56,409 nt of DNA, taken from assembly GCA_041657885.1 (NCBI GenBank), contig JBBABB010000003.1, forward strand, positions 1 through 56,409, in the 5' to 3' direction. The translations under genes were made by a program, and so were the position numbers. The stretch comes from Minisyncoccota bacterium (GTDB taxonomy: Bacteria > Patescibacteriota > Minisyncoccia > Phycocordibacterales > UBA9973). Under the pieces are notes generated by a model. That model had not been told where the DNA came from. It worked only from the letters and a program-made list of their open reading frames with translations, and searched no databases. Positions 2,702-55,310 of the stretch are shown here, in pieces (position 1 is the stretch's first letter; each line of letters begins with the position of its first letter).

Positions 2702-2722
2702 GCGTTAGGCCTTGCCTAACGC
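2702..2722. repeat. GCGTTAGGC-N3-GCCTAACGC hairpin, copy 1 of 2
   Basis: Perfect 9-bp arms. It overlaps the trmD stop codon (TAG). A second copy with the same arms and the complementary loop lies at 54353-54385. Confidence 0.7.
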
Positions 2723-3531
2723 ATTTTCCACTTCTCTATTTTTTTATGGTCGCCCGAGAGAAGAACCGCAGGCACTTTGTATTTCTTTTTATTATAAATT
2801 ATTATTTCAGGGCGAGTATAAACTTCGCTTGTTGAGACACGTTCTTCTTCTCTTGAATCAAAATTCCCTAGAACTCCTTCTATCTGACGTGAAATACAAT
2901 CGATGAGTATCATTGCTGGTATTTCTCCACCAGTGAGTACATAATTCCCTATTGAAATTTTTTTAAATTTACAGAACTTGTCCTGAGCTTGTCGAAGGAT
3001 TTTATCTACACGAGCGTCTATTCCTTCATACCGTCCACAAATCATAATTATGTCGGTATATTTTTTCGCAAAATTTTTAGCAACTTTTGTATCAAACTTT
3101 TCTGCATTAGGAATAAAATTAATAATTAAAATTTTTGGTTTTATTCCCCTCTTGAGGTGAGGTTGGGTAAGGGACCCAACCGTAAAACCTTTTGAGATAT
3201 CTTTGTAATCAAAGTATCCAAAAGGTGTACTGCTCCTGTAAGGAGGGCATCGAAGGGTGGGGTGGAGAATTTTTTTTGTTACATTCTCAACAGCTTTGAG
3301 AACTGGTTCTGCTCGCATGACCATACCTGGACCACCAGCGTATGGTCTATCATCCACCTGAAGAGAAACATTACCATCTGGCCAAACTTTTTTATATTTA
3401 CCTGTAACAAATTTACGAGGGTTTACAAAAGTAATTTTTATTTTTTTATTCTTTATCGCTCTACCTAGAATAGACTCATTCAAATATGAGTCAAACATTT
3501 CTGGGAATAATGTAATAATATGAAAATGCAT
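2716..3531 (-). CDS. trmD: tRNA (guanine37-N1)-methyltransferase TrmD with a 42-aa internal insertion
   Basis: MHFHIITLFPEMF, DDRPYAGGPGMVM, ICGRYEGIDARV and SIGNYVLTGGEIPAMILIDCISR match the TrmD signature regions. It lies in an rpsP-KH-trmD operon context. Confidence 0.9.
   Translation of the reverse strand: MHFHIITLFPEMFDSYLNESILGRAIKNKKIKITFVNPRKFVTGKYKKVWPDGNVSLQVDDRPYAGGPGMVMRAEPVLKAVENVTKKILHPTLRCPPYRSSTPFGYFDYKDISKGFTVGSLTQPHLKRGIKPKILIINFIPNAEKFDTKVAKNFAKKYTDIIMICGRYEGIDARVDKILRQAQDKFCKFKKISIGNYVLTGGEIPAMILIDCISRQIEGVLGNFDSREEERVSTSEVYTRPEIIIYNKKKYKVPAVLLSGDHKKIEKWKMR
3146..3267. repeat. 122-nt structured palindromic element (RPE-like), copy A, in frame inside trmD
   Basis: About 75 percent identical to 48443-48562 by eye. 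The two copies share three hairpins (GGTTGGG..CCCAACC, CTTTG taat CAAAG, CTCC tgtaa GGAG). It corresponds exactly to TrmD residues I88-G129 (ILHPTLRCPPYRSSTPFGYFDYKDISKGFTVGSLTQPHLKRG). Confidence 0.8.
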
Positions 3532-3535
3532 ATAT

Positions 3536-3608
3536 ACTGATCAACACTGATAATAAATACTGATTAGACACTGATAAAAGCTGACTTACACCGATTGATT
3601 CTGATTGG
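3536..3608. repeat. Left arm of the long inverted repeat flanking the GxxExxY gene (CTGAT motif array)
   Basis: actgatcaacactgataataaatactgattagacactgataaaagctgac... closely matches the reverse complement of 4040-4108 (gctgatcaactctgatgg..aactgataaacactgataaaaa). Confidence 0.75.
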
Positions 3609-3993
3609 TAAAATTAATTCTTCGACGAACTTCAACTTTTCTAGGTCCAAAATTTATAAGAAATCCTAAGGGTAATTTTGTTGATTTCAAATAATTCAAT
3701 AATTGAACTTCGTAATCCTTGGGCATAAAATCAACGGCTTTAATTTCAACTACTATATTATCATTTATAACAAAATCTGGGCGATAGACACCAACCTTAA
3801 CATCATCATAACTAATCGTCAAGGATTTTTCTCTTTCAAAATTAATACCTAATTTTTTCAATTCCAAAGCAAGTGCTTTTTGGTAAATTACTTCTTTATG
3901 TCCACCTCCTAAAATATTATGCACATTAAAACAAGCTCCTCTGATTTTATAAGATAAATCTTCGTACATAAAATTCTCAACCTTTTTGTTCAT
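3586..3993 (-). CDS. GxxExxY family protein (PD-(D/E)XK-like); the family is often encoded inside 23S rRNA intervening sequences
   Basis: The translation contains GGGHKEVIYQKAL (GxxExxY), RPDFVI and VVEIKA, and is 135 aa long. These features match my recollection of the GxxExxY family (TIGR04256). Confidence 0.8.
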   Translation of the reverse strand: MNKKVENFMYEDLSYKIRGACFNVHNILGGGHKEVIYQKALALELKKLGINFEREKSLTISYDDVKVGVYRPDFVINDNIVVEIKAVDFMPKDYEVQLLNYLKSTKLPLGFLINFGPRKVEVRRRINFTNQNQSV

Positions 3994-4136: not shown

Positions 4137-4487
4137 TTAGATACCCTTTAAATCTTCAAGCGCTGAATCAACTGACTTTGATGAATCACTACTTGATGGG
4201 GCTTGACTTGAGACTGGAGCTGAAGGATTTTCAATTTTACCACCTTCTGGCTCATTAATCTTTAGATTAACACGAGCATTATTTTTCATTCCAATAACTC
4301 GCAAAAGAGTTCTTATCGCTTTTGCAGTATTCCCCTGACGACCAATTATCTTACCCATATCTGCCGCATTAACGGTCATAGTTATAAGTACTCCCATCTC
4401 GTCTACTGTACGGTCGATTTTCACATCATCTGGATTATCAACCAAGGCTTTTACAACATATTCTAAAAATGCTTTATCGTCTGCCAT
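4137..4487 (-). CDS. KH-domain RNA-binding protein (YlqC/UPF0109-like) with a Ser/Pro-rich C-terminal tail
   Basis: It contains the GxxG KH motif KIIGRQGNTAKAIRTLL. Its position between rpsP and trmD is the conserved one. Confidence 0.85.
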   Translation of the reverse strand: MADDKAFLEYVVKALVDNPDDVKIDRTVDEMGVLITMTVNAADMGKIIGRQGNTAKAIRTLLRVIGMKNNARVNLKINEPEGGKIENPSAPVSSQAPSSSDSSKSVDSALEDLKGI

Positions 4488-4637
4488 ATCTTTGTTTATA
4501 GTATTATTCTTAAATCTGCGCAGTGTATCGACTACAACCTGCTCTGTTTTAGATTATATCACAAAATTGTTTTACTGTGCAAATAAAAAAATATAATATC
4601 AAAAAGAGCACAATATTAATATTTTATTTATTGGTAA

Positions 4638-4723
4638 CCAAAAAGCACAATATTACATTTTCTGAGTCGCGTCGGAGCCCTTTAGGGTAAAGCGCGAAGA
4701 AAATGTGATATTATGCTTTTTGG
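4638..4723. repeat. Long hairpin carrying a conserved 36-nt GC-rich apical core, copy 1
   Basis: A 25-bp AT-rich stem (4638-4662 / 4699-4723) encloses the core tgagtcgcgtcggagccctttagggtaaagcgcgaa (4663-4698). The core is identical to 33539-33574. Confidence 0.8.
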
Positions 4724-4728
4724 TTTAA

Positions 4729-5034
4729 TTATTTTTTCTTGAGTTCTTTTTTGGCCTTAGTGGGAGATTTCTTTGATAAAACATTTTTCTTTTTACCAGT
4801 AATTAATTTTTGGTGGACAAGAAAATTGTGAACTGTATCAGAAACTTGAGCCCCTTGACTCATCCAATAAGCCACACGGTCTTGTTTAAATAATACCTCA
4901 CCTTTTTTCAAATTATATGAGCCTAATATTTCTTTAAACCTACCGCTCTTAGCTGAATTTTTTGAGTCGGTTAAAACAACCCGAAAAGCAGAATCATTCT
5001 TGCGACCTATTCTTTGTAATCTTATTTTTAACAT
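4729..5034 (-). CDS. rpsP: 30S ribosomal protein S16
   Basis: MLKIRLQRIGRKNDSAFRVV is the canonical S16 N-terminus. I place the start at the internal ATG at 5034 rather than at the ORF-track start of 5073. Confidence 0.9.
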   Translation of the reverse strand: MLKIRLQRIGRKNDSAFRVVLTDSKNSAKSGRFKEILGSYNLKKGEVLFKQDRVAYWMSQGAQVSDTVHNFLVHQKLITGKKKNVLSKKSPTKAKKELKKK

Positions 5035-31767: not shown

Positions 31768-31936
31768 ATTTGCGGAGGGTGAGGGACCATGAGTACATGT
31801 TTTGGCCTCGACTCATAATTTTTCCGTCGAAAAATTATGGTCTAGCCACCGACTCGCTCATTTTCTCTGCTAAGAAAATGATGCTCCGTCGTTCAAATCC
31901 CCACGCACGACAAGCAGTTGTCGTGCTACCCTCCGC
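31768..31936. other. tRNA-Ser-derived mosaic / structured about 167-nt element closed by a 9-bp terminal helix
   Basis: It begins with a 19-nt direct copy of the tRNA-Ser 3' end (atttgcggagggtgaggga, identical to 31968-31986). It ends with the inverted copy ACCCTCCGC, so GCGGAGGGT pairs with ACCCTCCGC. Internal hairpins include CATAATTTTT ccgtcg AAAAATTATG, CATTTTCT ctgcta AGAAAATG and ACGACAA gcag TTGTCGT. It also contains a T-loop-like GTTCAAATCCC. Confidence 0.5.
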
Positions 31937-31971
31937 AAATACAAAACAGCCCCAAAAGGGGTTTTGTATTT
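31937..31971. terminator. Bidirectional hairpin terminator downstream of tRNA-Ser
   Basis: AAATACAAAA cag CCCC aaaa GGGG TTTTGTATTT. Confidence 0.65.
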
Positions 31972-31972
31972 G

Positions 31973-32059
31973 CGGAGGGTGAGGGATTTGAACCCTCGAA
32001 GGTTGTAACACCTTACACGCTTTCCAAGCGTGCGCAATAGACCACTATGCGAACCCTCC
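31973..32059 (-). tRNA. tRNA-Ser (anticodon GGA), type II with a long variable arm; CCA is not encoded
   Basis: Hand-folded cloverleaf: acceptor GGAGGGT/ACCCTCC; anticodon stem CACGC/GCGTG with loop TTGGAAA; variable arm AAGGT gttaca ACCTT; T arm GAGGG TTCAAAT CCCTC. Confidence 0.85.
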
Positions 32060-32960: not shown

Positions 32961-33509
32961 TTAAAACTTAACCGCAACTGGTTCTTTTTCGGCACTATCT
33001 TGCTCTAATTCAAAGAAATCCATCTTAGCGAATTTAAACATAGAGGCGATGACATTCCCTGGGAACTGGTCAATAGCAGTATTCAAGTCGCGAATATTTC
33101 CATTGTAAAATCTACGAGATGCTTGAATCTTGTTTTCTGTATCTGAGAGTTCACTTTGAAGCTGAAGAAAATTTGTATTCGCCTTTAAATCAGGATATGC
33201 TTCTGACACTGCAAAAAGAGATTTAAGAGTATCGGAGAGCATATTTTCTGCAACACCTTTTTCTGCTGTAGTACTCGCCTGCATAGCCCGAGCACGAGCT
33301 TCTGTAACCTTTTCAAATGTCCCTGCTTCGTGTGTAGTATACCCTTTCACCGTATTCACAAGATTAGGGATAAGGTCATAACGACGCTTGAGTTGAACAT
33401 CAATATCTGCCCATGCTTCTTGGGTCCTAGTACGGAGTGTAATAAAACCATTATACTTGAAAACCAAAAACAAAATAAACGCGACAACAATTCCTAATAT
33501 TATATACAT
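32961..33509 (-). CDS. lemA: LemA family protein
   Basis: An N-terminal TM helix is followed by YNGFITLRTRTQEAWADIDVQLKRRYDLIPNLV, which is typical of LemA. The lemA-htpX pairing is conserved. Confidence 0.85.
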   Translation of the reverse strand: MYIILGIVVAFILFLVFKYNGFITLRTRTQEAWADIDVQLKRRYDLIPNLVNTVKGYTTHEAGTFEKVTEARARAMQASTTAEKGVAENMLSDTLKSLFAVSEAYPDLKANTNFLQLQSELSDTENKIQASRRFYNGNIRDLNTAIDQFPGNVIASMFKFAKMDFFELEQDSAEKEPVAVKF

Positions 33510-33520
33510 ATATAATTGGA

Positions 33521-33592
33521 GCAGAAAATGAAATTTTATGAGTCGCGTCGGAGCCCTTTAGGGTAAAGCGCGAATAAAATTTTATTTTCTGC
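33521..33592. repeat. Long hairpin carrying the conserved 36-nt GC-rich core, copy 2
   Basis: An 18-bp stem (gcagaaaatgaaatttta / taaaattttattttctgc) is unrelated in sequence to the copy-1 stem. It encloses a core at 33539-33574 that is identical to 4663-4698. Confidence 0.8.
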
Positions 33593-33648
33593 GTAAATAA
33601 TAAATAAAAACGACTTTAGATACAATATCCATTATAGCATACTGAAAC

Positions 33649-34539
33649 CTAATTCTTTGCCTTCTTCTTTTGAAGGTTATTAAATATTACAAGCAATGGA
33701 CTTGCTAAAAAGATGGAGGAATATGTACCGAAGAACATTCCGGCTGTAAGCATAATAGCGAAAACTCTTGTACTTACTGGTCCAAAAAATACCAAAGCGA
33801 GAAGTGCAATAATAACAGTTGATGCTGTTGCGATTGACCTAATATAAACTTGGCTAATACTTCGCCCGACAGTTTCTTCAAATGTTTTAAAATGACCAAC
33901 ACGAATATTTTCACGAATACGATCAAATACAACTATAGTATCTGAAACAGAAAGACCCAATATTGTCATCACAGCAACCACAAAAAGAGTATCAACTTCA
34001 GCTCCAATTAAATGACCTAAAAACGCAAATACCCCAGCTGAAATAGTAACATCGTGAATCAATGACACTATTGCTATTAAACCATATTTCCAAGAAGAAA
34101 CTGGTTTTGAAACTTTACGAAAAGAAAAAGCTATCCAGAATATAATTCCAAGCGCTACTAGAATAAAAGAAATAATAGATTTGCGGACAAGTTCAGCTCC
34201 AACAGAAGGGCCGATAGAAGTAAAACTTTTTTCTGTAACATCACTTCCTAGCGCTTTCATGACAGACGAACGCTCTAGTTCATTTATATCTCGAGTTTTG
34301 ATACTGTAACCCTTTTCTCCCATAGGTTGAACTAATATTTCTCCTATAGAAAGAGGTTTTATTGTATCTTCTATAATTTTTTGTTCTGGTCTAGAAGTTG
34401 TATATTCTACCTCAAGAAGAGAACCTCCTTTGAAATCAATACCGAAATTCAAGCCGAAAAAAATTATAGATAGAATAGATAAAGAAACAAGAACAGCTGA
34501 AATCGTAACGAATATTTTTTTGTGTTTAATTATAAACAT
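33649..34539 (-). CDS. secF: Protein translocase subunit SecF
   Basis: GIDFKGGSLLEV is present, with six TM segments. It lies immediately downstream of secD. Confidence 0.9.
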   Translation of the reverse strand: MFIIKHKKIFVTISAVLVSLSILSIIFFGLNFGIDFKGGSLLEVEYTTSRPEQKIIEDTIKPLSIGEILVQPMGEKGYSIKTRDINELERSSVMKALGSDVTEKSFTSIGPSVGAELVRKSIISFILVALGIIFWIAFSFRKVSKPVSSWKYGLIAIVSLIHDVTISAGVFAFLGHLIGAEVDTLFVVAVMTILGLSVSDTIVVFDRIRENIRVGHFKTFEETVGRSISQVYIRSIATASTVIIALLALVFFGPVSTRVFAIMLTAGMFFGTYSSIFLASPLLVIFNNLQKKKAKN

Positions 34540-36384: not shown

Positions 36385-36416
36385 AACCCCGCGCGCATTG
36401 CGGGGTTTTGTTTTTT
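36385..36416. terminator. Bidirectional GC-rich terminator
   Basis: AACCCCGC gcgcatt GCGGGGTT is followed by TTGTTTTTT. A-rich sequence upstream gives a U-tract on the other strand. Confidence 0.75.
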
Positions 36417-36440
36417 CCACATGTCTGACATGTGAGAAAA

Positions 36441-37133
36441 TTACTCTTTATATTCAAGCCATTCTAGGATTTCCTTATCAAAATTTTTATTATTAGAAAA
36501 ATAATCAGGGAAATCTTCTAAATTTAAAATCTTATTTTCTAAACGATTAACACCACTGAAATCCAAATAACTGCTCCATTTATATTCGCCCAAAAATTCT
36601 AGAGTTTTATTTTCATCCTTAATTCCAACTTCTTTCCAATCTTTCTGTATAAGTTTTACTGGATTCAAATGAATATAAGAAAAAAGATATTTAGCTTGGT
36701 TGTCATTTTCTATATACACAGATTTGAATGCCCCCTCAAACAAACCTCCAGTTCTATTATATTTAGCATTAAAATATTTTACATATGCGGTTTGTAACTT
36801 CCTCATAAATTCGGAAATAGCATTTCTCCCCTTTTTTTCCCACATGTCAGACATGTGGGAATTTATCATTAAATAAATATGAAAATGATTAGGCATTAGG
36901 ACCCAAGCTCCAATAGAAACTATTAGCTTTCCCCTTTCAAATTCAAAAGCATCAATCTTAATATCTACAATATTATCTCTAAATTTAAAATTATTTTTTG
37001 TATTACATATATAAAGTAACTTAACGAAATGTTTATAATCAGATTTATCTAAAAATATTTTCTGTTTACTATTTCCTCTATTATATATATGATAATATCC
37101 ACCTCTAGCAAATGGTATTTTTCTTTTAGCCAT
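36441..37133 (-). CDS. REP-associated tyrosine transposase (IS200/IS605 Y1 HUH family, RAYT-like)
   Basis: YHIYNRGN, the HUH motif LMPNHFHIYL, GGLFEGAFKS and the catalytic Tyr region YIHLNPV are present. Confidence 0.8.
   Translation of the reverse strand: MAKRKIPFARGGYYHIYNRGNSKQKIFLDKSDYKHFVKLLYICNTKNNFKFRDNIVDIKIDAFEFERGKLIVSIGAWVLMPNHFHIYLMINSHMSDMWEKKGRNAISEFMRKLQTAYVKYFNAKYNRTGGLFEGAFKSVYIENDNQAKYLFSYIHLNPVKLIQKDWKEVGIKDENKTLEFLGEYKWSSYLDFSGVNRLENKILNLEDFPDYFSNNKNFDKEILEWLEYKE
36839..36859. repeat. REP-like palindrome inside the RAYT coding sequence, inverted orientation
   Basis: CCCACATGTC a GACATGTGGG has perfect 10-bp arms. It encodes SHMSDMW just after the HUH motif. Confidence 0.85.
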
Positions 37134-37179
37134 ATATAAATTATATCATATTCCCCATATGTCTGACATGTGGGGAAAA

Positions 37180-37758
37180 CTATTTTCTCTTAAAAATAAG
37201 ATTGAAAATTATAGCTATAATCGCACCTAAAATATAGCCAACTAAGATGTCTATAGGAAAGTGAACGCCAGAAGCTACACGAGCTAACCCGATGAGTAAT
37301 GCAACAACAATATACAAATACTCCATTCTTTTATGAACAAAATAAAGTGATACCGCAAGTGCACCAAAAAACATCGCGTGACCAGATGGGAAGGAATCCA
37401 TTCCCCCATGTAAAAATAGTGGTTTAATATTTTCAAAAAGAATAAACGGTCGGGGTGATAAGATAAACAATTTAATAATAGTTGCGATAATCCAAGCTGA
37501 TATACTCGCAGAAAATATAAGTGCTACTTCTTTAAATTTATTCTTAAATTGTAAAAATGGTGTACGATAATTAAAAACTCCATCAGTATGAAAAATCAAA
37601 TATATAAATGCAAGAAAGACCATCATATATCCAAAACCATTTGCCGTAAATATCAAAAGCCAATCAAGAAAGACAGATTGATGCGCTAAACTATATAAAC
37701 TAAAAAATATTTCATTATTCATATTATTTATCTCCATAACGACTTTCCGCGACCGCAT
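37180..37758 (-). CDS. PAP2 superfamily phosphatase (undecaprenyl-diphosphatase-like)
   Basis: SFPSGHAMFFGA and SGVHFPIDILVG are present, with multiple TM segments. The start may be the ATG at 37737. Confidence 0.8.
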   Translation of the reverse strand: MRSRKVVMEINNMNNEIFFSLYSLAHQSVFLDWLLIFTANGFGYMMVFLAFIYLIFHTDGVFNYRTPFLQFKNKFKEVALIFSASISAWIIATIIKLFILSPRPFILFENIKPLFLHGGMDSFPSGHAMFFGALAVSLYFVHKRMEYLYIVVALLIGLARVASGVHFPIDILVGYILGAIIAIIFNLIFKRK

Positions 37759-40681: not shown

Positions 40682-40793
40682 GTGCTGGCGGCAACCTACT
40701 TTCCCCGTTTATAGAGTATCATCGGCGCAACGAGACTTAACTTCTGTGTTCGGAATGAGAACAGGTGTGACCCCCGTGTTGAACCACCAACAC
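40682..40793 (-). rRNA. rrf: 5S rRNA
   Basis: The reverse complement reads GTGTTGGTGGTTCAACACGGGGGTCACACCTGTTCTCATTCCGAACACAGAAGTTAAGTCTCGTTGCGCCGATGATACT...GTAGGTTGCCGCCAGCAC. It contains the conserved CCGAAC..AGAAGTTAAG box and a 10-bp terminal helix. Confidence 0.9.
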
Positions 40794-40861
40794 AAAAAAT
40801 TCAACTATTTTATTTTCAAATTTTACTACATTACCCTCTTGGTAATGACAGATATAATACC

Positions 40862-40891
40862 TGAAAACTGAATGCTGTGAACGCAATAATA
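40862..40891 (-). other. 3' strand of the pre-23S processing stem
   Basis: tgaaaactgaatgctg (40862-77) is perfectly complementary to 46684-46699. gaacgcaataat (40880-91) is complementary to 46614-46625. Confidence 0.75.
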
Positions 40892-41134
40892 TGATTTCCA
40901 AATTTCCTAATAGGAATCGAACGATTAGTACGCCTCGGCTGAACACATTGCTGTGCTTACACCTAGCGCCTATCAACCTGATCATCTCTCAGGTTTCTCA
41001 AACGATTCCTCATCTTGAAGCTGGCTTCCCTCTTAGATGCTTTCAGAGGTTATCCATTCCCGACATAGCTACCGGGCAGTCCACTTGGCAGTAGAGCCCG
41101 TACACCAGAGGTCAGTTCATTCCGGTCCTCTCGT

Positions 41135-41545
41135 CACTTCATAAAAACTAAATTATTTTAGTTTTCACTATTCCCCTATTTCTAGGAGCGCAGACTATAT
41201 CTTCACCTTTTTCTGAAAAATTCAGAACGAAGGGTTGGCATATTACAGATATATGCAGTCATTTTCTAAGAAATGATTCCTCATATATAAGTCTCTCCTT
41301 ACGGATTAGTCGTTACGGGGTCAAACCTAAAACCCTATGCAAATCTTTGCATCAAGATAAATTAGATCGACTTCCCACGGTATTATCTTATCATTTTCTG
41401 GTCCTCAAGTAAATTCTCAACACAACGGCAGGACCGCACATTTGTGTATGTATAAGTGGACAAAAAATAATTTAAGACTTCACCGTTATTAGCCAAATTG
41501 TCATCACAAATTTCTTTGTGAAGTAGCAGAAACCCTCTCGGGTCT
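41135..41545 (-). mobile_element. Group I intron (411 nt, no ORF) inserted in the sarcin-ricin loop sequence
   Basis: The exons read ...GTTCCTAGT | intron | ACGAGAGGACCGG. The 5' exon ends in U and the intron ends in G. P1 pairs UAGU+AGA with UCUGCUA and has a U.G pair at the splice site. An S-like element GAAGATATAGTC lies at 41192-41205. Confidence 0.8.
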
Positions 41546-41701
41546 ACTAGGAACAAATCTTCTCAAGAATCAACGCCTGCAGTAGATAGGAGACCAACCT
41601 GTCTCACGACGGTTTGAACCCAGCTCGCGTACCTTTTTAATTAGCGAACAGCTAAACCCTTGGTAGCTTCTCCACCACCAGGATAAGGTGAGCCGACATC
41701 G

Positions 41702-41993
41702 TAAACGTAGCTATCAACAAAATATTTTAATTGCTAATAACACCGCCATCACTGGCGGGATCGGACTATATCTTCATCCTTCCATTAATCAATAATAATG
41801 GTTAGGAGATTGGCGTCTAGTCTCTGAGGATTCTTGTTAAAAATTTTAACAAGCCTTTCCTGCTGATTACCTTATCAATTACGAATAAGGGTTCCAGCAT
41901 ATGGCCAATTATTTTATTTTTCTCTTTACACCTATCAAACGTAAAGAAAAAACGCTAATATTATTTCTAATATGGCACCCCGATAATATGTTA
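41702..41993 (-). mobile_element. Group I intron (292 nt, no ORF) after U2500 (E. coli numbering by hand count), in the peptidyl-transferase centre
   Basis: The exons read GTTCGGCACCT | intron | CGATGTCGGCTC. P1 pairs GGCACCU with GGGUGCC (41974-80) with a U.G pair. P10 pairs AUCG with CGAU. The conserved Q (AATCAGCAGGAAAGG), R (CCTCAGAGACTAGACGC) and S (GATGAAGATATAGTCC) elements are present. Confidence 0.8.
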
Positions 41994-42234
41994 AGGTGCC
42001 GAACTCCGCCGTCGATATGAACTCTTAGGCGGAACTAGCCTGTTATCCCTAGAGTAGCTTTTATCCGTTAATCTTCATCCGCATCTAATGCGAAATGTCG
42101 GTTCACTATGTTCTACTTTCGTATCTGCTCGAGATGTACCTCTTACAGTTAAGCTAGCTTGTGCCATTACACTATCGGCACGATTTCCATTCGCGCCTAG
42201 CTAACCTTAATAAACTCCTCCGTTACTCTTTAGG

Positions 42235-43508
42235 CATTTATGTTAACCCAATTTATATTTTAAACTTGGAAGTATATATGGCTCAATTATATTTTTAAAT
42301 AATTGTGCCGATTCGCTATACACATACAGTCTCCATTGTGAATATTGTTTATGTATTCCGACTTTAATTCCAAACTTTTTTTCAAAAACATCTTTAATTA
42401 ACTCAAGCTCATCTTTTGTGTAGCAATTCGAATGAATTATATATGTTTTATGGTGGACAGATTTATATGACCCATCATCCATAAACCACATTGCTAAACT
42501 TTTTTGACTAAACAACTTAAAAATAATTTTAGGCATTACTTTTTTACCATTATGATAAAATTGTTGTCCATAAAATCTAAATATATCGCTTGAAATTGTC
42601 ATAAAACCATAAGATTTTAATTCTTTTCCAAGTGATATTCTTGTTCTTTCTTTTGGAGCTGATATCGTGAATTCCTTAAAAATTTGATACAAATAATCAA
42701 CATATTCTTTCTGTTTGATTGAGTGCTCAACTTTAAGGCGATATGTTCTGCCATTGTTTTGTGTTTCCAAATGGCCATCTCCTAAAATAATTCCTACAAG
42801 AATTTCTTTTTGTTCATCCGTAAGCTTTTCACTAATCGTTTTACTTTGTTTTGTTTTCATATTAGGTTTTCTAATTTTAAATTAGAACTTCATGTCGCCA
42901 TGAAGATCGGACTATATCATCATCTCAACTTTAGTTGAGAGCCAGCGTATAGTCTCTGAGGATTTTTATCAGATTCCCAAAGAAGGAGAAGAAAAAATAT
43001 TGTTATACTTTCTCTTCTCAAAATTTTCAAAACCTTAGATGAGATTTAACTTTTTACAGTCCATGTAGTTGACTCAACAAGATTCAACCAGCCAAAAGTA
43101 TTGTTCAACATACGTCTATGTATTCCTCTACAATCGTTAAGTTGTCCTGATTATACGGACTCTGTCATTATGCTTACACACAATGAGTATCTACCTAAGT
43201 GGTAGCCTACTTTTTCTCCTTGGTCTTGAATTAAATTCAAAGAACATTTCTCCTTCTTTGGAAACCCAATAAATCTTTCCTGCTGATTGTCCGCCGATTT
43301 TTACATCTCACTTTAAGATTTTTACTATTTATATTTTATAATAAATTAGTACTTAAAGATACATGCGGATGTTTCAGCATACAGCTGATTTTCTATCATC
43401 GTTTACACGATGATGTCCCCTTGTTTTATTTTTTTCGAGGTGGATTAGACCTCTCGAGGCGGCATAGTTCGAGAATTCAAATAGAAATTTATTCTGTTTA
43501 AATTCTCG
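42235..43508 (-). mobile_element. Group I intron (1274 nt) carrying a LAGLIDADG homing endonuclease gene, inserted just 3' of the P-loop (about E. coli 2262 by hand count)
   Basis: The exons read ACTGGGGCGGTATCCT | intron | CCTAAAGAGTAACGGAGG. The 5' exon ends in U and the intron ends in G. Q (AATCAGCAGGAAAG), R (CCTCAGAGACTATACGC) and S (GATGATATAGTCC) elements are present. The ORF occupies the 3' third of the intron. Confidence 0.8.
42243..42860 (-). CDS. Double-motif LAGLIDADG homing endonuclease (intron-encoded)
   Basis: It has two LAGLIDADG motifs, ILVGIILGDGHL and LAMWFMDDGS, and is 205 aa long. It lies entirely inside the intron. Confidence 0.85.
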   Translation of the reverse strand: MKTKQSKTISEKLTDEQKEILVGIILGDGHLETQNNGRTYRLKVEHSIKQKEYVDYLYQIFKEFTISAPKERTRISLGKELKSYGFMTISSDIFRFYGQQFYHNGKKVMPKIIFKLFSQKSLAMWFMDDGSYKSVHHKTYIIHSNCYTKDELELIKDVFEKKFGIKVGIHKQYSQWRLYVYSESAQLFKNIIEPYILPSLKYKLG

Positions 43509-43819
43509 AGGATACCGCCCCAGTAAAACTACCCACCAGATACTGTCTCTCTACGTTTTTGCCGTAGAGATTAGAATATATCGTCACAAAGAATGGTATT
43601 TCACTGTCGAGTAAATCACAACCGAGATCGTGACCATCAAACCTCTCCCATCTATGCTACGCAGAATAACCATATACTCAATATCAAGCTGCAGTAAAGC
43701 TTCTAGGGTCTTTTCGTCTATCTGCAGGTAACCGGCATCTTCACCGGTATTGTATTTTCACCGAGCAGGTCTTCGAGACAGCTCTCCAGTCATTATGCCA
43801 TTCGTGCGCGTCGGAACTT

Positions 43820-44059
43820 CATTACTCAACACCAATTTATTTATAAAAATTAGTGTGAACCCTTTATTTCTAAAGGAATGGACTATATCTTCATCCTTAA
43901 TAAATTATTAAGGATGTTTGCGTGTAGTCTCTACGGTGTCCCCGTAAATTATGGGGTTCCCTCGGTATTGCCATATTTAATTTTCATTAAACTTAGGTTT
44001 CACCGATACAGCAAATTATCGATCAGTTTTACAACTGAAAGGGGCAAGTTCCGATACTT
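43820..44059 (-). mobile_element. Minimal group I intron (240 nt, no ORF) after U1951 (E. coli numbering by hand count)
   Basis: The exons read CCTTGTCGGGT | intron | AAGTTCCGACGCGCACGAATGG. P1 pairs GGGUAAGU with ACUUGCCC and has a U.G pair at the splice site. The intron ends in G. R (CCGTAGAGACTACACGC) and S (GATGAAGATATAGTCC) elements are present. Confidence 0.8.
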
Positions 44060-44073
44060 ACCCGACAAGGTAC

Positions 44074-44114
<41 letters not shown>

Positions 44115-44294
44115 CAGGGCTTATATCAGCCAGCCTACATCTTGCGACATAGACCACCGATATTTGACCTTCTGGCATTGGTCAGGCATCACCCCCTATA
44201 CATCCTCTTACGAGTTCGCAGGGAGCTGTGTTTTTGATAAACAGTTGCCAGAGATACTTTCGCTGCGGCCCCGGGCATCACGCTACGCGCGATG

Positions 44295-44377
44295 TTAATT
44301 AAGAATTAATAATTAAAAATTAATAATGAAATACAAAATGCATTCAATTCTTAATTCCTAATTCATAATTATTAATT
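44295..44377 (-). other. AT-rich heptad-periodic hairpin expansion (IVS-like) in the 23S helix 63 region
   Basis: One arm is AATTAAG AATTAAT AATTAAA AATTAAT AATGAAA. The complementary arm is TTCTTAA TTCCTAA TTCATAA TTATTAA. Both have an exact 7-nt period and are embedded where E. coli has the short helix 63. Confidence 0.7.
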
Positions 44378-45040
44378 GCATCACATGCAATGTGATGCCT
44401 AGGGCAAGCCTTATTCCAAAGTTACGGCTGCTTGTTTGCCGAGTTCCTTGAAGACCTCTCACTCGTTCGCCTTGGTCTACTCGACCTGATTACCTGTGTC
44501 GGTTTACGGTACGGATTCTATTTCATTAACCTTAGATACTTTTCTTGGAAGCGTGCTTTATAAAATCTGCCTCGACGAATCGAAACATTTATGCCTCGCT
44601 TGGGTGCCACTTTTACGTGCATCTTCCGGATTTTCCTGGAAGAAACCCTCACTAACATACTCAAATCCAATAATGAGCTTTATATACTACACTCCGTCCT
44701 ATCATCGAATAAAATAGAAGTCAGGGAATATTAACCCTGTGCCCATCGGATGCGGCTATCGCCATTTCCTTAGGACCGACTAACCCTGGGGTGATTACCA
44801 TTGCCCAGGAAACCTTAATCTTTCGGCGGGAAGGGATCTCACCTTCCTTGCGGTTACTTGTGCCAACATTCTTACTTCCACACGCTCCACCATGGGTCAC
44901 CCCTTTGGCTTCGACGCTGAGTGGAAAACTCTCCTACCGCTCCCAATTTTAAAAAAATGGAAGCCCTCAATTTCGGTATTATGTTTAGCCCCGATTATTT
45001 TCGGTGCGAAATCTCTGGATGAGTGAGCTGTTACGCTTTC

Positions 45041-45072
<32 letters not shown>

Positions 45073-45203
45073 TCATTGTCAGAGAAATTTCACCTCCTTG
45101 ATTTGCACTTAACATAAATTTAGGGACCTTAATTAGAGATCTGGGCTGTTTCCCTTTTGGCTGATGGAGCTTCGCCCCCATAGCCTAACTGCCGTGTTTT
45201 TTA

Positions 45204-45338
45204 CCCCCACACCTACTTTACCATCGTTCTGTTTTTTCAAAACAACATTAACATTATTTTAATATTCTAATTAATAATATTATTTTTAATAATACAATCA
45301 ATACAGAACAAAAAACAATGGCAAAGTAGGTGTGGGGG
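45204..45338 (-). repeat. 135-nt hairpin IVS in 23S helix 45 (CCCCCACACCTA family, copy 1)
   Basis: cccccacacctactttaccatcgttctg...cagaacaaaaaacaatggcaaagtaggtgtggggg replaces the helix-45 tip, between GAATACTAAGAGTAAAC and TAAAAAACACGGCAG. It is about 98 percent identical to 46076-46212. Confidence 0.85.
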
Positions 45339-45725
45339 TTTACTCTTAGTATTCGGAGTTTGATAGAATTCGCGAGATTACTCCCTGTCGAAACCTTCCA
45401 GTGCTCTACCCCTAAGAGGAACACACGACGCTAGCCCTAAAGCTATTTCGGAGAGAACCAGCTATTACCAGGTTCGATTAGTTTTTCACTCCTTACCACA
45501 AGTCATCCGAGACTATTGCACGGGTCACCGGTTCGGACCTCCATCTGCCTTTCGACAAACTTCATCCTGCTCATGGCAAGCTCACCTGGCTTCGGGTCTT
45601 ATCTAGACTACATTTATTTCGCGCTATTAACACTCGGTTTCCCTAAGGCTCCACTGTTCTAACAGCTTAGCCTGCAGCATAGATAAACTCGTTGGCTCAT
45701 TCTTCAATAGGCACGCCGTGACGGA

Positions 45726-45771
45726 CAGAACAAAATTTTCGAAAAAAATTCCTTTCAAAAATTTTGTTCTG
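45726..45771 (-). other. Extended helix 25 hairpin (small IVS-like expansion)
   Basis: CAGAACAAAATTTT cgaaaaaaattcctttca AAAATTTTGTTCTG lies at the helix-25 position. It shares the CAGAACAAAA string with the 135-nt IVS family. Confidence 0.6.
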
Positions 45772-45826
45772 CCCGCTCCGACTCCTTGTAAGTATATGGT
45801 TTCAGGTCTATTTCACTCCCCTTATC

Positions 45827-45869
<43 letters not shown>

Positions 45870-46075
45870 ATCTAAAAAAGTATTTAGCCTTACCAGTTAG
45901 TTCTGGTGGATTCGCTCAAGCTATTCGTGTCTTGAGTTACTCAAGAATGACAATCAAGAAGATGTGAAATTTTCAACCACCGGGCTATCACCGTCTATGG
46001 CTCTTCTTTCCAGAAGATTAATCTAACAACACATTTTGTAACTTCTCTAGATAAATCTACATTGTCATCTTACAA

Positions 46076-46212
46076 CCCCCCCACACCTACTTTACCATCG
46101 TTCTGTTTTTTCAAAACAACATCAACATTATTTTAATATTCTAATTAATAATATTATTTTTGATAATACAATCAATGCAGAACAAAAAACAATGGCAAAG
46201 TAGGTGTGGGGG
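46076..46212 (-). repeat. 137-nt hairpin IVS in 23S domain I (CCCCCACACCTA family, copy 2)
   Basis: It has the same sequence as 45204-45338 apart from 3 substitutions. It is inserted right after AGTAGCGGCGAGCGAAAAGGAAAGAGCCCAAA. Confidence 0.85.
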
Positions 46213-46496
46213 TTTGGGCTCTTTCCTTTTCGCTCGCCGCTACTCAGAAAATAAATATTTTTCTCTTTTCCTCCAGGTACTGAAATGTTTTACTTCCCTG
46301 GGTATGCTCTTTTGTGTCAAGCACAAAAGTTTCTAAGGATTACTTAGAAGGGTTTCCCCATTCAGAAATTTCCGGATCAAAGGTTGCTAGGCACCTCCCC
46401 GAAACGTATCGCCGCCATGCTACGTCTTTCATCGCCTTTTTTAGTCTAGGCATCCGCCATATACTCTTATATTTCCTATTAGGAAATATGAAAACC

Positions 46497-48358: not shown

Positions 48359-48434
48359 AAAAAACACCCCCGCAAGCCCCCACACCTATATTTTGTTTAA
48401 TTAAATATAGGTGTGGGGGCAAGGGGTGTTTTTT
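48359..48434. repeat. Composite hairpin whose inner stem has the same base as the 23S IVS family (CCCCCACACCTA)
   Basis: AAAAAACACCCC cgcaag CCCCCACACCTATAttttgtttaattaaaTATAGGTGTGGGGG caa GGGGTGTTTTTT. Confidence 0.8.
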
Positions 48435-48442
48435 TGAGTTTT

Positions 48443-55211: not shown

Positions 55212-55238
55212 TTCCCCACATGTCTGACATGGGGGGAA
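55212..55238. repeat. REP-like palindrome, fourth copy, remote from the RAYT gene
   Basis: TTCCCCACATGTC t GACATGGGGGGAA has 13-bp arms with one mismatch. It has the same core as 37151-37177. Confidence 0.8.
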
Positions 55239-55310
55239 CAATATAAAAAATTGATGTAACACTTGCAGACGGCCGTCGCTATCTGTTACAGATATACAAA
55301 ACGGAAAGTG

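Follow-up and report, generated by a model that had tools for sequence, protein, structure and literature searches.

A palindromic hairpin repeat of about 78-92 bp dispersed between and within genes of Patescibacteria

The DNA analyzed here (the window) is a stretch of 56,409 nucleotides with about 33% GC from a Minisyncoccota bacterium. Two of its spacers, each between genes of the minus strand, contain the feature of interest. The first lies between rpsP (ribosomal protein S16; 4729..5034, PF00886), upstream in the direction of transcription, and a KhpA-type KH-domain gene (4137..4487, PF13083); the second lies between secF (33649..34539, PF02355) and, downstream of it, lemA (32961..33509, PF04011). 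Pfam thus gave the same spacers and the same gene direction as the initial annotation. The 36-mer TGAGTCGCGTCGGAGCCCTTTAGGGTAAAGCGCGAA is present on the plus strand as two exact copies, at 4663-4698 and at 33539-33574, as had been noted. No third match with up to three mismatches was found in the window (0 expected in shuffled sequence), and a covariance model built from 111 copies of the family described below, run over the whole window with filters off, returned no copy besides these two.

Both 36-mers are indeed the tips of long hairpins, with minimum free energies of -46.4 kcal/mol (z-score -9.3) for copy 1 and -35.2 kcal/mol (z-score -6.2) for copy 2, and fold prediction gave the core structure that had been proposed, in which UCGCGU/GCGCGA encloses GCCC-UUUA-GGGU. 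Copy 1 is a 90-nt hairpin element at 4636..4725 (+; covariance model score 88.2 bits), whose edge is 4 nt past the stop codon of rpsP (4729-4731). Its apical module of 34 nt (4664..4697, +) consists of a GAG bulge, the helix P2 (UCGCGU/GCGCGA), a CGGA/AAA loop and the helix P3 (GCCC-UUUA-GGGU); together with the closing T-A pair (4663 and 4698), this module makes up the 36-mer. It stands on the 19-bp helix P1, formed by the left arm GCACAATATTACATTTTCT (4645..4663, +) and the right arm AGAAAATGTGATATTATGC (4698..4716, +), and on an outer extension in which AACCAAAAA (4636..4644, +) pairs with TTTTTGGTT (4717-4725) and Watson-Crick AAA/TTT takes the place of the usual GNA/GNA loop. The stem of copy 1 counts 28 bp, two positions of which are non-Watson-Crick. 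Copy 2 occupies 33515..33598 (+; 93.2 bits), 5 nt from the ATG of lemA. It has an apical module identical to that of copy 1 (33540..33573, +), a 19-bp P1 formed by GCAGAAAATGAAATTTTAT (33521..33539, +) and ATAAAATTTTATTTTCTGC (33574..33592, +), a GGA/GTA internal loop and three more pairs (P0, ATT/AAT). A partial duplicate of the copy 1 left arm, about 80% identical, lies 37 nt upstream (4601..4627, +) and is likely a remnant or an arm duplication; similar arm duplications were seen in RNase HII orthologues, where they are visible as doubled 'xSQ' peptides.

The two stems had been described as unrelated. Aligned in register, however, their arms are 74% identical, and at the five positions at which the left arms differ, the opposite arm has changed to match; the exception is two uncompensated positions within copy 1. 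Both pairs of arms fit one family consensus, gaAGCAGgAwTAT..AATTyT [core] ArAATT..ATAwTCcTGCgaag, which is drawn from over 100 copies. In agreement with the earlier failure to recognize an RNA family, Rfam gave no match at gathering or at permissive thresholds; the best hits were miRNA-type hairpin models, which scored about 20 bits where 100 are required. Comparison of the core by eye with the consensus sequences of the hammerhead, twister, K-turn, bulge-helix-bulge and group II domain V motifs gave no fit.

The pattern and covariance-model search of genomes and metagenomes that the initial annotation had proposed showed that the two copies belong to a much larger family. A scan of one genome per GTDB species, with a pattern in which the loops were fixed and transitions were allowed in the stems, found 23 loci, 1-4 per genome, in Nomurabacteria, Paceibacterota, Nealsonbacteria, Saccharibacteria and unclassified Patescibacteria metagenome-assembled genomes. 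A metagenome scan with a 24-nt tip pattern found at least 116 loci, and the covariance model applied to the collected loci a few further divergent copies. In total, genomes and metagenomes contained at least 147 copies (at least 121 unique), usually 1-5 per contig; these copies are related, and their counts represent non-independent events. The invariance of the core is largely a matter of ascertainment, because the retrieval patterns fix the tip or core; the tip does evolve, as seen in a sample of RNase HII orthologues (see below). In the two metagenomes that contain the window, the depth of the core was 15-30 times that of its flanks. No matches were found in a scan of viral contigs or in BLAST searches of phages and plasmids. 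A full-text literature search found no described Patescibacteria element of this kind, although absence there is no proof. A CRISPR or TIGR-type array was rejected, as the two window copies are 28.9 kb apart and the loci are mostly single-copy. We conclude that Patescibacteria (CPR) genomes carry the element, a sequence of about 78-92 bp, as a few scattered copies each.

The repeated unit is the entire rod, that is, the arms together with the GC-rich tip. The outermost helix, P0, has 2-7 bp and is different at each site; it reached at least 2 bp in 84% of the copies, compared with 27% when the flanks of different copies were paired. Inside P0 follows a 3x3 internal loop, GNA/GNA (GAA, GGA or GTA), which is turned into Watson-Crick pairs in copy 1 and at the Tgt site described below (GAA/TTC), and then, going inward, P1 with 19 bp, the GAG bulge, P2 with 5-6 bp, the CGGA/AAA loop and P3. 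At the 5' end, GAA was counted 22 times, GGA 10, GCA 4 and GTA 2 times; at the 3' end, GAA occurred 14, GTA 10 and GGA 8 times, with GAAG, GGAA and GTAG as the commonest tetramers. Pairing was observed in 94.9% of the cells, compared with 72% in shuffles and at most 51% with partners slid. All 16 pairs of the outer helix (P1) showed double-sided changes, and covariation was strong in 19 of 24 pairs. In copies found only with the model, P3 is lengthened with compensation (GCCCAG-UACU-CUGGGU; GCCCGUCG...UGACGGGU; GCCCC-UUU-GGGGU), and P2 and the CGGA/AAA loop are unchanged where its length varies. The covarying closing helix once suggested for a structured RNA is therefore real, but the copies are distributed as a dispersed repeat and not as an RNA gene.

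Copies between genes were found mostly between co-directional ones, 38 antisense and 11 sense, with only three convergent and three divergent cases and one copy between tRNA genes. They usually start 0-20 nt past a stop codon and end 5-30 nt ahead of the next start. The neighboring genes have no common theme, and no transposase was present among the 25 most frequent of the 142 Pfam families hit by 150 neighboring ORFs. About 1 Mb of flanking sequence contained no longer element with the same ends. A consistent T-run after the hairpin was absent on either strand in the flanks of 25 and then of 111 copies, and a consistent promoter was absent in the flanks of 25 copies. An intrinsic terminator was rejected because of the lack of a T-run; copies also lie inside ORFs.

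A PDDEXK_3 (PD-(D/E)XK nuclease) gene at 3586-3993 interrupts the rpsP-KH-trmD operon at a distance of about 650 nt from copy 1. It was considered as a linked factor and rejected, since tblastn found none at any other locus. The window also carries other repeats and inserted sequences. The near-perfect palindrome TTCCCCACATGTCTGACATGTGGGGAA occurs four times (36413-36445, 36836-36868, 37151-37183 and 55212-55244), at or near gene boundaries; it represents a further short palindromic repeat or, possibly, a family of operators or terminators. Inverted repeats of the form CCCCCACACCTAC.../...GTAGGTGTGGGGG are located at 45203-45339 and 46078-46212, 874 nt apart in the 23S region, with a related one downstream (48361-48435). 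A perfect 20-bp hairpin with a CCCC-UUUU-GGGG tip (31928-31980) shares sequence with the 3' end of the minus-strand tRNA-Ser gene (31972-32059). The rRNA operon occupies 40683-46466 on the minus strand; its 23S gene appears as two Rfam matches and contains two group I introns (41742-41960 and 43860-44069), between which lies an ORF of 205 aa (42243-42860), possibly a homing endonuclease. A 23S gene interrupted in this way and the GC content of about 33% give the window a Patescibacteria-like character.

To find out which strand carries the structure, we took the strand that reads GAGTCGCG... and compared the numbers of G·T and A·C within its outer helix: the ratio was 86:22 (about 4:1) overall, 28:9 for intragenic copies, 32:8 for intergenic antisense and 10:5 for intergenic sense copies. 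Because G·T wobbles exceed A·C mismatches in each class, it is the GAGTCGCG strand that folds, whichever way the gene runs. This plus strand was also the more stably folding one in 90 of 93 copies. Cytosine deamination follows a usual strand asymmetry. In the window, the GAGTCGCG strand has a negative GC skew and is the lagging-strand sequence, opposite the strand that carries the genes and rRNA; deamination asymmetry would, by inference from the GC skew and the leading-strand genes, predict the opposite excess. Mutation bias was therefore judged an unlikely source of the G·T excess, which moreover has the same direction where genes run the other way. The asymmetry looks like selection for pairing on one strand independently of transcription, which would suit single-stranded DNA, or an RNA transcribed from the element itself, better than an mRNA structure.

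These features could also belong to a functional structured module kept by selection, namely a hairpin that acts in cis, as RNA or DNA, and to which a conserved Patescibacteria protein binds, for example in mRNA processing or stability, or an antisense RNA. Such a module would explain the strong covariation and the conserved internal loop, the compensated length changes of P3 above a constant P2 and CGGA/AAA loop, the G·U wobbles kept on one strand in any gene direction, and the identity of the two window cores on arms that are only 74% identical. The position just past stop codons of co-directional genes resembles that of REP and ERIC repeats acting on mRNA, and the core is present in metatranscriptome contigs, which carry no strand information and may include DNA. 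However, in every one of the 41 intragenic copies, and in about 78% of those between co-directional genes, the strand that folds is the antisense of the host mRNA; both orientations relative to genes are found, and there are only a few copies per genome, next to genes without a common theme. The absence of an Rfam match, a T-run and a consistent promoter also speaks against a module of this kind, as do the copies inside genes and the alleles at their sites.

Copies inside long, mechanically called ORFs account for 41 of the 121 unique copies listed (34%) and represent about 14 independent sites. These are in RNase HII (one site), UvrA (two), UvrC (three), Tgt (one), an RluD-like pseudouridine synthase (one), class I tRNA synthetases (two), LigA (one), an RpoC-like protein (one) and other proteins (two); most hosts were named from conserved sequence motifs, and RNase HII and Tgt were confirmed against solved structures. 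In all 41 copies the core is reverse-complemented in the mRNA and read in one frame, with the predicted peptide ..(A/S)Q(E/K)Y(A/S)NS-SRFTLKGSDAT-QN.H..AS.. of about 22-31 residues. Each of the three plus-strand frames of the standard core contains a stop codon (TGA, TAA and TAG). For the whole element, the frame used was open in 77% of the copies and the second reverse frame in 20%, and forward frames were seldom open; we estimated a chance expectation of about 13% for an open frame at this AT content. As only the stop-free orientation and frame occurs inside genes, the host ORF is predicted to read through the element. Compared with solved structures, the insertions are clean: query residues 1-110 and 133-225 align with E. 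coli RNase HII, and at the position of 27 residues in the Tgt query, the Z. mobilis protein has 2. An AlphaFold model of RNase HII shows the insertion as coil, with most pLDDT values under 50. Many of the copies inside genes are old and orthologous, being common to genomes whose flanking proteins are 65-85% identical, and active transposition may be rare or extinct.

Other insertions were observed in two of the genes concerned here. The Tgt of contig L017 contains, at residues of about 106-141, a further stretch of about 31 residues that Z. mobilis Tgt lacks and that is unrelated to the element. In the window, the trmD ORF (2716-3531) has a split Pfam match and a GC-richer in-frame stretch at 3135-3284 with strong folding (z about -4.6 to -5.1), which is probably an in-frame insertion of another hairpin-element family.

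The RNase HII site was studied in an unbiased sample of 120 orthologues. The standard core was present in 32 of them and tip variants in another 32, an inverted element of the same family in 7, and a second family, GGTCCTCGGAYGAGGG..GCCAGACC, with its own arms, in 17; 14 sites were empty or held remnants, and 18 were decayed. The DNA of an inverted copy was checked in L141 (501-1184, rnhB), where the element lies in opposite orientation at the same codon position and reads ..NFCPCRPQYSGLSGENLDNS...; inverted copies stay readable because their tip variant (CCCCAGTACTCTGGG in L141) contains no stop codons. This suggests that recombination between the two arms can flip the core. For the second family, the DNA was examined in rnhB of L140 and L142, and in uvrC it occupies in L020 the same site as the first family in L015 and L021. 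Filled and empty pairs were also found among UvrC and UvrA orthologues, several of the 'empties' being remnants of internal deletions. Both window copies are variable as well: a co-occurring strain in the source metagenomes lacks 225 nt that include copy 1, and another such strain, on a contig of the X2 metagenome, has 22 nt (TTTAATTAATTAAATTAATGAT) instead of 33515-33606.

The PMDZ01 genome (Nomurabacteria) carries three copies at unrelated sites with arms that are 95-97% identical and an adjoining hairpin repeat of about 125 nt in common. This neighbor, GGTCGTTCACGAAATAG...CTATTTCGTTTCYGACC, is unrelated in sequence and directly precedes each copy (L004:5410-5540, L006:550-680 and L014:755-885), a composite or clustered layout like that of REP clusters. 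Metagenome contigs may be chimeric across the repeat. In L103 (559-648), the left arm and flank of the rnhB copy are joined to the right arm and flank of a uvrC copy, and the two arms are non-complementary; this is most likely an assembly chimera and less likely a real recombinant.

The different states at orthologous sites, together with the near-identical arms at unrelated ones, point to copies being duplicated or gene-converted, inverted between their arms, decayed and lost, which is the behavior of a repeat element. They weigh against the functional module introduced above: about 14 unrelated sites within essential enzymes, and alleles at the same site in close relatives that lack the element, are inverted or carry a different core, are hard to reconcile with selection for such a module, and we consider it quite unlikely.

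The initial annotation had offered, besides a structured RNA, a small element targeting the loops of hairpins already in place, and had asked about empty hairpins without the core at orthologous sites. Several observations would suit a mobile core of about 36 nt entering the loops of unrelated hairpins such as terminators: the first family, its tip variants and the second family sit at exactly the same rnhB and uvrC sites, the site-specific P0 is complementary far more often than in the controls (84% against 27%), and small palindromes are present in two empty alleles. Both palindromes lie exactly at the position of the element; one is TTAATTAATTAA, the other GGGGAAtttaTTCCCC, compared with GAGGAAG[...]CTTCCTC in the filled allele. 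But the empty alleles lack the 19-bp arms as well. The arms are homologous among copies, family-specific and recurrent at unrelated sites of one genome, the second family carries different arms of its own, and no T-run follows the hairpins. What persists of that proposal is the appearance of mobile DNA; the long AT-rich arms travel with the core, and entry of the core alone into existing loops seems very unlikely.

At most, the unit of about 80 nt may prefer the centers of short palindromes. P0 differs among otherwise near-identical copies and is still complementary, which together with the two empty alleles suggests insertion at such centers; an origin of the outermost 2-7 bp helix from a small palindromic target is suggestive in the same way. 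Alternatively, the palindrome-bearing empty alleles may be remnants. True pre-insertion sites are few, and since many apparent empty sites are remnants, the idea of a target palindrome stands on two alleles; one UvrC pair argues for part of P0 arriving with the element.

In its size of 78-92 bp, its inverted-repeat arms, its dispersal and its absence of coding capacity, the element also resembles a classical MITE. Such a MITE derives by deletion from an insertion sequence, whose transposase mobilizes it through conserved terminal inverted repeats, and leaves a target-site duplication. One diverged filled and empty pair can be read as a duplication of TATTC or TATATTC, but the remaining pairs show none. 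The unpaired GNA tails are no target-site duplication either, because their 5' and 3' variants do not co-vary. Furthermore, variable arms around a conserved center are the reverse of a MITE: the mean identity of the arms was 0.69 within genomes and 0.55 between genomes, compared with 0.94 for the core, much of which is fixed by the search patterns. By its termini, the element thus failed as a classical MITE, and no parent insertion sequence was seen, with no transposase among the 25 most frequent of 142 neighboring Pfam families and no longer element with these ends in about 1 Mb of flanks. We regard this origin as highly unlikely.

Taken together, each locus is best explained as a copy of a non-autonomous palindromic hairpin repeat of the general kind of RPE (Rickettsia palindromic elements), REP sequences and bacterial MITEs, a reading to which we assign a probability of about 75%. 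Its mobility is deduced from the distribution of copies and not from a mechanism, as neither a transposase nor a target-site duplication nor conserved terminal inverted repeats were found. The element would spread or be homogenized as DNA by a factor acting in trans. This factor would recognize the folded single strand 5'-GNA-arm-GAGUCGCG...GCGCGA-arm-GNA-3'. Selection for the hairpin, intrastrand (quasipalindrome) correction or both would maintain the pairing of the arms. Recognition as a single strand, on one strand only, is a tentative part of the proposal; it is suggested because the G·T wobbles keep the pairing on that strand regardless of gene direction. The two copies in the window probably do nothing specific for the cell beyond forming a stable hairpin in operon spacers. 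One could go further and regard the element as the substrate of an undescribed Patescibacteria-wide mobilization or recognition system that acts on the folded strand, usually antisense to genes, sets the rod at the centers of short palindromes so that the halves of the target become the outermost helix, and flips or exchanges the tips in place. We think it unlikely that all of this holds; if it did, the frame open in 77% of the copies would be an evolved feature for life inside essential genes.

Patescibacteria have very small genomes, few recognized mobile elements and proteins with many unexplained insertions. The repeat explains some of these insertions, in UvrA, UvrC, RNase HII, Tgt, LigA, tRNA synthetases and an RpoC-like protein, and at least two sister families appear to do likewise. 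After Rickettsia, this is a second large natural case of palindromic DNA lying in frame in essential genes of a reduced, host-dependent bacterium, and it points to a general tie between genome reduction and this lifestyle of selfish DNA. In practical terms, the repeat has to be considered as a source of chimeric metagenome contigs (as in L103), of split domain matches and of inflated protein-family diversity, and it is a potential lineage marker. The strand-specific covarying rod with its conserved tip offers a handle for finding the enzyme that moves or maintains it.

Among known systems, the MITEs ERIC, Correia/NEMIS and RUP share with the element its size class, inverted repeats, co-transcription and occasional in-frame intragenic copies; however, they have conserved terminal inverted repeats and a target-site duplication, whereas the element has variable, compensated termini, a conserved center and no evident duplication (PMC10969869, PMC3184786). 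The GC clusters of fungal and sponge mitochondria are likewise GC-rich hairpins that spread in AT-rich reduced genomes, sometimes in coding regions, but they are organellar, and the element shows no sign of translational bypassing, its frame being open and its length a multiple of three (PMC2800124).

The closest system in architecture is that of the REP/GTAG repeats, which are mobilized by RAYT tyrosine transposases and have 20-40 nt, stems of 5-13 bp and hundreds of copies (PMC3733652). Both kinds of repeat have unpaired purine-rich tails at the foot of the hairpin (GNA or GNAG in the element) and G·T pairs that mark a single-strand structure on one strand, both lie downstream of ORFs between co-directional genes and form clusters with other hairpin repeats, and the intragenic copies of both are preferentially in replication and repair genes (PMC3733652). 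In contrast to REP, the element measures 78-92 nt, with a stem of at least 19 bp, a structured tip of 34 nt and few copies, and so does not fit by size; it has GAA, GGA or GTA at both ends instead of a single GTAG tag, and no RAYT gene was seen near its copies, where the 25 most frequent of 142 Pfam families include no transposase.

The closest case in behavior is RPE (Ogata et al. 2000, 2002, summarized in PMC10969869 and PMC3733652), which lies in frame in housekeeping genes without a transposase; about half of the RPE-1 copies are intragenic, and the length is about 100-150 bp. Both are palindromic repeats in small AT-rich genomes of host-dependent bacteria, dispersed between genes and often in frame in housekeeping ORFs (34% of the listed copies here), with the peptide at a tolerated, probably surface, position and no linked transposase. 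Both count a pseudouridine synthase among their hosts. The element differs from RPE in its phylum, its shorter length of about 80-90 bp and its fewer copies per genome, in its conserved GC-rich structured tip and covarying arms, and in its range, which covers several class- and phylum-level lineages of Patescibacteria, whereas RPE belongs to one genus. With its Patescibacteria host, the element would be at most an analogue of RPE, similar to it in behavior and not a member of that family.
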